Assembly (NCBI RefSeq): GCF_055900595.2 | Contig: NZ_CM148325.1 | Reading direction: 5' to 3' (one strand) | DNA length: 64,000 bases | Shown here: positions 58,501 through 61,500 of the stretch, piece by piece | Layout of the letters: each line of letters starts with the position of its first letter | How positions within the stretch are numbered: the stretch's first letter is position 1 | Position numbers: made by a program

Positions 58501-61500
58501 CACCATCTGAAACATTTATAATCCGGCGGGTTTCCGGTGCACCATCAACTGAAAATCCATATCCTGAAGGACCGGCCCCTACAGAAAGTACATTGCTTTC
58601 TCCATTCACCTGAGAGCCATACCCCAGAGCGACACTGTTGTCTGCATTAAAAACAGCTGTCTTATGTCCCACTGCCATGGATTTACCCGCATCCCAAATT
58701 ATTGCACCGGAACCAACAGCAAAGTTTTTTCCAGTAACATTAGTATCACCGTTAGCATTTCCATTTCTGTCAATCACACTTGCACTTTCAAGTGACTGAG
58801 TGCCATTATCAAGCCAGATAGTACCCGTCAATGGCTCAGAAAGTGTTTTATGAGCCAAAGCCTGAGATGAGAGCAGCAGGGCCACACTCACTGCCAGCGC
58901 GCTTTTCTTTAAAAAAGCATCACGTCTTTTAAGCATTCTGTTATTCTCCTGTATTATTACTTCACCAGCCAGAACGGTAGTGCGGAGCAAAAATACAGTG
59001 ATAAGAATCCTCTCTTATTAACTTAATAATGCCAGGAATATTATTGTGTATAATATGCGACCTCAATTTAAGCAGCAGAAAACGACTGGCATTAAAATCA
59101 TTAAATTATAAACATATACAACTTTGTAAAGGTGGTTATAATAAACCTGATTACTTTAACGTCTGTATACCTGCACTGCTGATATCACAAAACAATAAAA
59201 ATCCTGGTTAATATCTCTGATGATTGAATGAGAAATTCACGATGTCTGGTGAGAATTCTGTTCAAAACGAGGAATGCAGACGTACATGTGGCAGGCATGG
59301 ACTTCTACCAATTTAACTTTTTTCCTTCCTTGTATTTACACATTGCACATTTTGCGCTACAAAAATTTCACGTGGCACGCACCACGTGATCCGTAGAAAA
59401 GCCTCTTGTTACGAATTTCGTAAACCGCACGTCTGTCTGGTCGTGCGGATTTTTTATCCGTCAACTTCACATGAAACCCGCCAGAGCACTGTTTCCGGAT
59501 TCAGACATCAGGCATATTATCATCCACGATGTCGTGAACAAGATCACACTTTTGCAATTCCTTTATTGATCGAAAGCAGTTAATCACGGAAATTAATTAC
59601 CGGAGTGAAAGCATTACTGCATCGTAAATATCTACCATTTTTGACTACACCCTCTGACAGAATTTTCAGAGGGTTTTTTATCAGTTTCACCATCCAACCC
59701 TGTACGCCAGAATGGTTTCACTGTCACTCAGTTCTGCTATTGCCTTTTTCATCTCCCTTTACCTTACGTTCTGCCAGAGTCTGAGCCATTTGAACAGGAG
59801 GTTATCATTGATATCGTGTTCCCGGGCAATACGGGCAACAGAGGCTCCTGGTTGCAAAACCAGTTTAACCATTTGAAGTTTAACTCATTTGAAAATGATC
59901 TGCGGGGTTCTGCGGATAATGTTTTTGCTCCATAACAGGCGCCCACCAGTTTGAAAAGGTGGGCACCTACGTTACCAATACTGGCTTAATGGATACATAC
60001 GGCGGTCGGTTCTTACGGTAAAACGACACAACCAAACGCTTCTTATCCTGCAATGAACTGCTTTATTACCGAGTTTAGTGACCGCACAGACACTCACTTT
60101 TAAGAAAAACAGAATGGTAAACAAACTCCATGAATTACAATAGCTCTCTGGCTGCCGCCACAATAGCTTGCGCGGTTAACCCGTACTCTCTCTGTAAAAA
60201 GTCCTGAGTTTCAACCTGGCCATACCGCTCTTTAACCCCCACCCGACGCATGGGCACAGGACAAGTTTCTACAAGCACTTCAGCAACTGCTGAACCTAAT
60301 CCATTATGAATACGGTAATGACTCCAATTAGTTGAATTAGGAGTATAATAGCCACTTTTAAGGTTCTTTCATGGTCACAGTTAACCTTCATTGCTCCTGT
60401 TGCCAGTCCGTTCAGGTTTACCGTCACGGGAAGAACCCAAAGGACATGATCGATTTCGCTGCCGTGACTGTCATCGAGTGCTTCAGCTCACTTACCGTTA
60501 CGAGGCCCGTAAACCGGGAGTTAAAGAGCAAATCACTGAAATGGCTTTCAACGGTGCCGGAGTTCGCGATACTGCCCGTACGCTGAAAATCGGCATTAAT
60601 ACTGTCATCCGGACTTTAAAAAACTCTCGCCACGAAGAATAACGTCATACCCGGTCGCTCATGCTGATATGGCACTCATCTGCGAACTTGATGAGCAATG
60701 GAGTTTTGTCGGCAGTAAAGCGCGACAGCACTGGCTCTGGTACACGTACAACACGAAAACTGGTGGCGTTCTGGCCTACACTTTTGGCCTACGGACTGAT
60801 TAAACCTGTCGTGAATTGCTGGCGCTGCTTGCCCTTTTACCATCGGTATGTTGACCACTGACGAATGGGGTAGTTACACCAGAGAGTTACCGAAGGAGAA
60901 GCATCTGACTGGTAAGATTTTTACTCAGCGCATTGAGCGCAACATCTACCTCTGAGAACCCGAATCAAACGTCTGGCCCGCAGAACTATCTGTTTCTCGC
61001 GCTCTGTAGAACTTCATGAAAAAGTCATCGGTGCCTTTATCGAAAAATATATGTTCTACTAATTGGAGTCACCACCTTCGTTTGTTTAAAGAACCTGCTG
61101 GTCCTGCCATTAATATTACCTGCTGATTGCTTCACATCCGGATTCCTCGCACTGCGCGCGGGTTATTGTTTCGTTTTCGGCCACGGGGTCGCCAGGGCTC
61201 TGTTTGCAGGCCATGATGGCCTGACCTGTACTGTTTCTCAGGCACTGAGATGTCCGTTTACGCCATTTGTTCCCTGCCCCTCTGTCTGATAACGAATACG
61301 CTCACAACGCACAGTACTGAACAATACCGACAACAACATGTCTTACATGAAATTCGCTGTAACATCCACCGGAAAACATTTTCAGATATCGGATGAGGTA
61401 CTACTTCCATTGACAGCGCGAGGTAACAAAATTGATGGTAACTCTGACCATTAACCGTAAACCGCAGGGTATTTTCAGTAAATCACCGGCAACGCCGCTG

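Follow-up and report, generated by a model that had tools for sequence, protein, structure and literature searches.

Moron units are genes that lie between phage modules and are provided with their own promoter and a factor-independent terminator (Juhala et al. 2000, cited in PMC4104026). Sequence that stems from the ykgJ-ecpE region of the chromosome is also present in lambdoid prophages (Nakamura et al. 2021, PMC8112680), and the 5′ side (ykgJ/ecpE intergenic) of the STEC ‘attB-in-PP_2’ region is an attachment site for other phages (PMC8112680). Pathogenic E. coli further express Hfq-dependent prophage sRNAs, namely AgvB, AsxR, Esr41 and PasA-D, which lie downstream of PR′/Q, PasB excepted, whose place is between the tail assembly gene and J (PMC4104026, PMC8550237, bioRxiv 10.64898/2026.05.13.724894). 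Where two genes converge, their facing stop codons can enclose intrinsic terminators, with a GC-rich stem and a U-tract and a set for each strand, and gene decay can leave orphan terminators behind.

The locus considered here shares traits with all of these systems. It lies in a window of 64,000 nt (contig NZ_CM148325.1, assembly GCF_055900595.2), in which 59233-59761 very probably constitute a ∼530 bp fragment from the tail end of a lambdoid prophage, and two hairpins inside it, T1 and T2, would be the orphaned terminators of a vanished gene. The features, with the evidence for each in brackets, are the following.

59115-59142, plus strand: sigma-70-like site TATACA-16-TATAAT, the only good one upstream on this strand (promoter scan; context only)
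59233-59316, plus strand: 3′ stump of a YkgJ-family (PF03692) gene, last 27 codons, stop at 59314-59316 (tblastn; PGAP in strain LR-31)
59360-59389, minus strand: perfect palindrome TCACGTGG-CACGCA-CCACGTGA (59368-59389), terminator-like with a T-run (terminator scan, folding)
59409-59423, no strand assigned: small inverted repeat TTACGAA-T-TTCGTAA just upstream of T1 (read from the sequence)
59425-59455, plus strand: T1, intrinsic-terminator-like hairpin CCGCACG-N10-CGTGCGG, then A and T6 (sequence, folding, terminator scan)
59649-59679, plus strand: T2, intrinsic-terminator-like hairpin ACCCTCTGA-N8-TCAGAGGGT with a T6 run (terminator scan, folding)
59687-59761, minus strand: 3′ stump of a phage tail-fibre assembly gene (Tfa, DUF4376), last 23-24 codons REMKKAIAELSDSETILAYRVGW*, stop at 59687-59689 (tblastn, peptide matches)
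59762-60011, minus strand: left end of an IS66-family (ISEc23-like) element with the first ∼35 codons of tnpA, truncating tfa (identity to ISEc23, PGAP)

Two gene stumps thus face each other at the borders of the interval, at 59233-59316 on the plus strand and 59761-59687 on the minus strand. In a tblastn search of the whole window, residues 83-109 of K-12 YkgJ align with the left one at 52% identity (E 3e-5) and with the same stop. In strain LR-31, PGAP calls this stretch a ‘YkgJ family’ pseudogene fragment, the allele ending in ...NEACNRARSRYGLPPI*, near the family consensus. Weak DNA similarity to the ykgJ-like gene may extend back to ∼59196; no similarity is detectable upstream of that point, nor in the protein outside residues 83-109, and the N-terminal cysteine-cluster domain (CxxCxxCC) of YkgJ is absent. 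On this alignment, the stretch is a gene fragment and not a gene. A degenerate YkgJ C-terminal pattern, probably too strict, found no match among the GTDB species representatives, and a 45-aa chimera query recovered K-12-type fragments only.

The right-hand stump is identical to the C-terminus of an intact 191-aa Tfa encoded on metagenome contig L039. It aligns over 27 aa with the Tfa proteins of prophages L009 and L010 (tblastn, 56% identity), and these match the gene of metagenome contigs L030 and L039 over 142 aa at 62-64% identity (E ∼1e-55). The 23-aa stump peptide also matches the C-terminal ends of phrog_15942, phrog_1141 and phrog_11571 (E 3e-4 to 2e-3), the latter two annotated as tail fibre protein. 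The identity of both stumps is thereby established. A full-length Tfa (∼190-245 aa) beside a tail-fibre gene is absent from the window, which holds the last 23 codons only. Beyond them, the IS66 remnant shares 95% identity over 252 nt with ISEc23 of plasmid NZ_CP024227, the homology ending at 59762, and bears the PGAP label ‘transposase, frameshifted, incomplete’. Both metagenome contigs share the interval, the ykgJ stump and the adhesin with the window (93-96% identity over 58373-59766) and continue into the intact 191-aa Tfa, itself preceded by a 426-aa collagen-repeat tail-fibre gene. They represent the state before the IS66 insertion. As a separate observation, phage tail-fibre genes lie immediately upstream of the YadA-like adhesin of the island and suggest that the adhesin module came from a phage.

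In intact prophages, the ykgJ-like gene (plus strand) and tfa (minus strand) are convergent neighbours beside tail-fibre genes, with hok/sok slightly further along. Between the two genes, prophage L009 has a pair of plus-strand terminators at a distance of 160 nt, one of them at a position analogous to T1, and thus displays the layout of the window. A single plus-strand terminator, 9-13 nt from the tfa stop (12 nt for T2), is found in L010 and 10 other loci, and a hairpin with a T-run precedes the tfa stop by 9-13 nt in all 12 of the 12 other prophage loci with a placeable tfa end. The stumps of both facing genes and the layout of these relatives together argue that T1 and T2 served, as terminators, a gene that has since been lost. 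Weak homology to the spacers of L010 and L009 is present in the stretch that precedes T2 (z ∼2.2); 59317-59462, with the palindrome and T1, has no detectable homology to them (z < 1). No phage combining this exact spacer with an intact ykgJ-like gene was found. As the gene is already a stump in both metagenome contigs, T1 and the palindrome are assigned to ykgJ by their position and by comparison with L009 and L010. Phage collections gave no phage match to the locus, and plasmid collections gave one E. coli plasmid only with the same locus. Across many lambdoid prophages, the last 25-35 codons of the ykgJ-like gene and its terminator form a fixed junction that recurs at the tail end while the upstream DNA differs.

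Compared with the described systems, the locus resembles lambdoid moron units in its small accessory ykgJ-like gene at the tail-fibre end, followed by one or two intrinsic terminators, an architecture conserved in L009, L010 and 10 IMG/VR loci with a delimitable spacer. It differs from them in that the gene body is gone, leaving the last 27 codons and the terminators with no assignable promoter. The ykgJ-like gene beside tfa probably belongs to the captured ykgJ-ecpE region of STEC prophages, although the account of that region (PMC8112680) describes neither 3′ terminators nor an adhesin-linked relic. The hairpins also share stem, U-tract and placement with terminators of convergent genes, but both flanking genes are stumps here and the terminators consequently lack a cognate transcription unit.

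The first-pass annotation of this stretch had seen an interval devoid of any convincing ORF, with two strong plus-strand hairpin-plus-T-tract terminators 225 bp apart. These observations hold. The longest ORF in the interval has 65 aa, and the PGAP annotation of the five E. coli genomes examined shows no intact gene at this place. A 32-aa ORF (59471-59569) was discarded as a gene, having no visible ribosome-binding site (own reading of the sequence) and, in L048, an internal 1-nt deletion. T1 and T2 are GC-rich stems followed by a U-tract, predicted as terminators downstream of the ykgJ-like stop (59316) and on its strand, with starts 224 nt apart. The T1 stem (59425-59431/59442-59448) has 7 bp, six of them GC, closes a 10-nt loop and precedes T6 at 59450-59455; it folds at -14.3 kcal/mol (z = -2.9 against shuffles). 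The stock terminator scanner missed it because it allows loops of ≤8 nt only. The T2 stem (59649-59657/59666-59674) has 9 bp, five of them GC, an 8-nt loop and T6 at 59674-59679 (-14.7 kcal/mol, z = -3.6); 12 nt separate its end from the stop codon of tfa, which is encoded on the other strand. A strict scan of the window returned 43 nested matches at ∼24 distinct sites, as against 5.5 ± 3.1 matches in Markov shuffles. Four distinct sites fall in 59368-59917, where the density of the window itself would predict ∼0.2, so that by this post-hoc estimate the clustering exceeds chance. One distance counts against a relic: T1 starts 108 nt past the stop of the ykgJ stump, whereas the K-12 ykgJ terminator starts ∼25 nt past its stop.

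Of 5426 complete E. coli genomes, 370 carry the locus, in the same context as far as checked. It does not behave as a repeat or an IS end: no second copy exists in the window or the fetched loci, every E. coli genome record with the interval holds the full locus too, and the IS66 homology stops at 59762. T1 and the palindrome are invariant in 16 alleles. T2 has six allelic variants, all of which keep a hairpin of 8-10 bp (-13.4 to -18.1 kcal/mol) and T6-T7; they differ by one base pair (A:T to C:G) and by homopolymer slippage, and were folded one by one, as homopolymer indels misalign the stem in a formal pair count. This retention of the hairpin, including the A:T to C:G change, would also fit continued use. 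Polymorphism is patchy, with an invariant core (59360-59609, 0-2 segregating sites per 50 nt) and a maximum in the upstream region of the adhesin. The dead tfa and IS66 DNA at 59710-59809 has 0 segregating sites, and the interval is conserved no better than this adjacent dead DNA.

The palindrome had been proposed as the binding site of a regulator. Its existence as a perfect 8+8 repeat is confirmed, and its position is corrected to 59368-59389, 13 nt to the left of the 59381-59402 originally given. Read on the minus strand, it runs into AATTTTTGT and is scored by the scanner as a terminator; a 9-bp hairpin precedes AAUUUUUG, with a T5 run from 59365 to 59361, and folds at -14.2 kcal/mol (z = -3.3). 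In L039, 328 nt separate the stop of the intact tfa from this terminator-like site, which follows it on the strand of that gene. The exact palindrome has no match among the GTDB species representatives, and its single IMG/VR match is the same island and not an intact phage. A T2 pattern search in IMG/VR found nothing, the contig there carrying a shorter-loop allele. As an operator, the palindrome would bind a dimeric regulator, such as the sigma-70 region-4-like HTH protein whose gene follows the adhesin gene, and control the adhesin promoter. Its perfect arms with a 6-bp spacer, its invariance, its place ∼430 bp upstream of the adhesin start codon and the constant linkage of the small HTH gene to the adhesin speak for such a role. 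However, ∼8 perfect 8-bp inverted repeats are expected by chance in 64 kb (own estimate), the palindrome lies beyond the ykgJ stump in DNA of other origin than the adhesin control region, no second copy of the motif near the adhesin promoter was noticed on reading the sequence, and the natural metagenome variant L050 has lost the left arm. The T-run on the minus strand gives the palindrome the textbook form of a terminator oriented like tfa; termination behind the tail-fibre operon is its simpler reading, and an operator is very unlikely.

One or two small RNAs had also been suspected in the interval. Trans-acting candidates would be ∼85 nt long, from a weak promoter (59336-59366) through the palindrome and the small hairpin to T1, or ∼155 nt long, from 59492-59520 to T2, or both would exist. 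They would share with the known Hfq-dependent sRNAs an origin in lambdoid prophage DNA, rich in sRNA genes (PMC4104026, PMC8550237), and a 3′ end with a hairpin and U-tract, here U6 in both T1 and T2. The stretch 59360-59460 is moreover rich in hairpins and invariant in 16 alleles, the inverted repeat at 59409-59423 forming a short stem in the fold of the whole interval, and promoter-like sites can be read at 59337-59366 (TACACA-18-AAAAAT), 59336-59364 (TTTACA-17-TACAAA, own reading of the sequence) and 59492-59520 (TTTCCG-17-TATTAT). Promoter prediction nevertheless leaves only weak sites at chance level inside the interval (three found against 4.6 expected), which score 7.5-8 on a lenient 13-point scale (12 hexamer matches and a TG bonus). 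The covariance-model search that had been suggested was run and found no Rfam family in the interval at or near its gathering score. With E ≤ 1 on 57000-62000 and gathering scores on the whole window nothing relevant appeared, and the homologous spacers of L009, L010 and L039 had no match. The sole Rfam hit in the interval, Atu_C9 (14.9 bits against a gathering score of 40, E 0.9), is the T1 hairpin on the wrong strand. The Rfam 15 families without a match include AgvB (RF02702), AsxR (RF02703), Esr41 (RF02676), STnc100 (RF02076) and IsrG (RF01390). AgvB, AsxR and the other Pas sRNAs are ruled out by location and by Rfam. PasB, a candidate on account of its frequency in extraintestinal strains, in many cases outside recognisable prophages, is ruled out by its location between the tail assembly gene and gpJ in EPEC E2348/69 and by its Northern probe, whose complement has no match in the window with ≤3 mismatches allowed. 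Known prophage sRNAs thus sit elsewhere, the invariance is equalled by adjacent dead DNA, the locus was found within E. coli in this one island context only, and the convergent-gene architecture fully accounts for both terminators. Nothing supports the suspected sRNAs, which are improbable. Even less is to be expected of a more specific scenario, in which the invariant, hairpin-rich 59336-59455 (weak promoter, palindrome at the start site, small hairpin, T1) would be a still-active ∼85-nt putative sRNA, captured with the phage fragment and now linked to the YadA-like adhesin in a tRNA-Phe island of avian and extraintestinal E. coli, perhaps with the palindrome as operator; this is highly unlikely.

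A third alternative, possible though rather unlikely, gives the hairpins a present use as putative insulators. T1 and T2 would stop divergent plus-strand transcription from the adhesin control region (59115-59142), and the palindrome would keep minus-strand transcripts arriving from IS66, IS1 and farther off out of the adhesin gene. Within 3 kb, the strongest promoter-like site (10/12 matches) indeed points at T1, which, if this site were active, would end a transcript of ∼300 nt; the adhesin, on the minus strand, lies directly downstream of the palindrome terminator, and T2 persists in all six variants. Retention for this purpose is opposed by the lack of a selection signal above background at the locus, by the variation between alleles in the -35 hexamer of the site, which lies inside the polymorphic upstream region of the adhesin, and by the origin of the arrangement, which was inherited from phage and did not evolve in place.

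The prophage-fragment reading may be summarized as follows. In lambdoid prophages, a small ykgJ-like ‘moron’ gene is transcribed towards the end of the tail-fibre operon (stf-tfa), and the spacer between the two stop codons carries one or two predicted intrinsic terminators for its transcript, the last one abutting the tfa stop. Both genes are destroyed here, the ykgJ-like gene down to its last 27 codons and tfa, cut by the IS66 element, to 23 codons; the DNA to the left of the ykgJ stump is of other origin, namely the upstream region of the YadA-like adhesin gene. The palindrome is probably a minus-strand terminator, downstream of tfa and upstream of the adhesin. The hairpins would once have ended the ykgJ-like and tail-operon transcripts, and today are presumably idle or have at most a passive role, in which T1 and T2 might stop plus-strand transcripts leaving the adhesin control region and the palindrome might shield the adhesin promoter against read-through from the right. 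The ‘leader remnant’ also proposed for the interval was close to the truth as a remnant; it is not a leader, and corresponds to the 3′ spacer between two truncated convergent prophage genes.

The interval amounts to common prophage debris within an E. coli island, and nothing in it points to an sRNA gene. It carries little biological weight and serves mainly as a warning: strong terminators that cluster in a gap without ORFs can belong to the spacer between two eroded convergent genes, and end-of-gene stumps of ∼25 codons suffice to reveal them.

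The ORF-poor interval between the adhesin upstream region and the IS66 remnant holds no ORF longer than 65 aa, in line with the first-pass annotation, and the two plus-strand hairpin-plus-T terminators described there, T1 and T2, are seen in the sequence and fold (−14.3 kcal/mol, z = −2.9, and −14.7 kcal/mol, z = −3.6, respectively). The reported palindrome exists and is perfect, 13 nt to the left of the place first assigned to it. Its minus strand runs on into AATTTTTGT, and in the terminator scan it was scored as a minus-strand terminator.

Features of the interval and of the surrounding window
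3162-3208, minus strand: Guanidine-II riboswitch (50 bits)
17078-17153, plus strand: tRNA-Phe
59233-59316, plus strand: ykgJ stump, last 27 residues of a YkgJ-family protein (tblastn with K-12 YkgJ)
59368-59389: perfect palindrome, TCACGTGG-CACGCA-CCACGTGA
59425-59448, plus strand: T1 stem-loop, CCGCACG-N10-CGTGCGG, then A and T6 at 59450-59455
59649-59674, plus strand: T2, ACCCTCTGA-N8-TCAGAGGGT, with T6 at 59674-59679
From 59761, stop at 59687-59689, minus strand: tfa stump, translation REMKKAIAELSDSETILAYRVGW*

A strict terminator scan of all 64 kb gave 43 nested hits, or ∼24 distinct hairpin-plus-T sites by our own count, compared with 5.5 ± 3.1 for Markov-shuffled sequence. Of the distinct sites, four fall within 59368-59917; therefore, the terminator cluster is real. 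The IS66 remnant itself has a plus-strand terminator-like hairpin at 59898-59917 (ATCTGCGG-GGTT-CTGCGGAT, then T5), antisense to tnpA and shared with ISEc23.

Both flanks of the cluster are gene ends. The left stump, to which a PGAP ‘YkgJ family’ pseudogene fragment in strain LR-31 gave the first lead (the gap is otherwise without PGAP annotation), is 52% identical to K-12 YkgJ (E 3e-5, whole window) and has the same stop. Upstream of it no YkgJ similarity is recognisable, except a possible trace to about 59196. The LR-31 allele, ...NEACNRARSRYGLPPI*, is closer still to the family consensus. Within the stump, at 59260-59310, about 13 of 45 positions vary between alleles; LR-31 keeps the consensus EACNRARSRYGLPPI, the window has EECRRTCGRHGLLPI, resembling the palindrome arm, and short-patch recombination may underlie the difference. 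The ykgJ-like paralogues of E. coli retrieved by a database search for the family are 109-143 aa long, and their genomic contexts are lambdoid prophages. There, the ykgJ-like gene lies at the tail end, convergent with a DUF4376 tail-fibre assembly gene (tfa), beyond which come tail-fibre genes, hok/sok and J. Such prophages are known to contain sequence acquired from the ykgJ-ecpE region of the chromosome (Nakamura et al. 2021, PMC8112680). In 8 of 15 prophage loci (L020-L027, from IMG/VR) all that is left of the ykgJ-like gene is its last 24-33 codons, and the DNA before them is unrelated, comparable with window 59196-59316. The terminator and the tfa end are retained throughout. A mosaic junction of this kind appears to recur at the tail end of lambdoid prophages.

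The right stump is 56% identical over 27 aa to the C-terminus of prophage Tfa proteins, and its peptide alone matches the C-termini (E 3e-4 to 2e-3) of phrog_15942 and of two families annotated as tail fibre protein, phrog_1141 and phrog_11571. From 60011 down to 59762, and not beyond, the sequence is homologous to ISEc23 (IS66 family, 95%); thus, the IS fragment truncates tfa. An exact-match scan with T1 retrieved 26 metagenome contigs, of which 24 have the truncated arrangement of the window or end before the junction. In the other two, L030 and L039, the match ends at 59766 and tfa coding sequence follows. Tfa in L039 is 191 aa long (C-terminus ...IRQREMKKAIAELSDSETILAYRVGW*). A collagen-repeat tail-fibre gene (426 aa) lies before it, and after it come T2, T1, the palindrome, the ykgJ stump, the adhesin and the HTH gene, as in the window. 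Given this pre-IS66 arrangement, it is well supported that 59233-59761 derives from the tail end of a lambdoid prophage.

The adhesin module immediately follows the tail-fibre operon and has the same orientation. As an intact adhesin and a sigma-70 region-4-like HTH gene directly follow stf-tfa in L039 (3354-5085, same strand), the module itself is suggested to be phage cargo. In the window the YadA-like adhesin gene (58370-58990 and about 57050-58360) is interrupted by an IS3-family element; two ALIL frameshift pseudoknots (45577-45693 and 57398-57514) mark two IS3-family copies.

In the intact prophage L009, 337 nt separate the ykgJ-like and tfa stops and hold two terminators on the plus strand, one at 5478-5499 and one at 5638-5657, of which the latter ends 10 nt short of the tfa stop. 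The intact prophage L010 and 10 further loci have a single one, GGGGGAGG...CCCCC-T5, ending 9-13 nt from that stop; T2 ends 12 nt from it. From this layout, paired plus-strand terminators would therefore normally close the 3′ side of the ykgJ-like moron, an accessory gene with its own promoter and terminator. The outer one would shield the tail operon against antisense read-through, and the palindrome would terminate on the opposite (tfa) strand. Compared with the L010 and L009 spacers, the sequence just before T2 aligns weakly (z about 2.2) and the palindrome-T1 segment does not (z < 1). A phage with this exact spacer after an intact ykgJ-like gene was not found in the phage collection, contigs and loci examined. 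The L009 spacer contains a tandem duplication (5366-5600) of an about 50-nt module (GATC..TATCACTGTTT.T.CAAACTT...), with a separate terminator after each copy.

The first-pass annotation had read the cluster as a possible small-RNA locus. The cluster stands; an sRNA encoded there is improbable, with no positive evidence in its favour and prophage decay as explanation for the hairpins. Rfam gave no relevant match in the interval or in homologous spacers, promoter-like sites inside the interval are weak, and the sole good one (59115-59142) lies in the adhesin upstream region. PasB is an 83-nt sRNA from an EPEC prophage, frequent among extraintestinal strains and located between J and the tail assembly gene; AgvB, AsxR, PasA, PasC and PasD sit near Q/PR′ (PMC4104026, PMC8550237, bioRxiv 10.64898/2026.05.13.724894). 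PasB was rejected, its probe sequence being absent from the window and its map position different; the other five were set aside on location and on the Rfam result.

Of 5426 complete E. coli genomes, 370 carry the interval, as does one E. coli plasmid; it was not found in the phage collection. All six genome copies inspected share their neighbours: to the left the YadA-like adhesin gene with the small HTH gene, to the right fragments of an IS66 transposase and of a transketolase, along with IS1. Because the window contains tRNA-Phe, the locus is probably a tRNA-Phe-associated island, with 17078-17153 as its likely integration site. The palindrome and T1 are invariant across 16-19 distinct alleles, and so is the non-functional stretch of tfa and IS66 sequence at 59710-59809. 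Polymorphism clusters in three mosaic patches (59060-59209, 59260-59359 and 59610-59709). Nowhere at the locus is variation greater than in the first, upstream of the adhesin (pi 0.10-0.18, 19 alleles), where the −35 hexamer of the 59115-59142 site is among the variable positions. Six variants of T2 occur, one difference between them being a switch from A:T to C:G at the base of the stem; since each retains a hairpin of 8-10 bp with T6-T7, there is mild evidence that this hairpin is useful now or was recently. In the metagenome variant L050, a deletion of about 71 nt (59298-59368) between imperfect repeats CATGTGGCAGGCA (59285-59297) and CACGTGGCACGCA (59369-59381) takes away the left palindrome arm together with the ykgJ stop region.

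The origin of the cluster DNA is well supported, and ordinary events in a decaying prophage, namely loss of the moron and truncation by an IS element, would account for the cluster. Its terminators would now be orphaned, or passive insulators at most.
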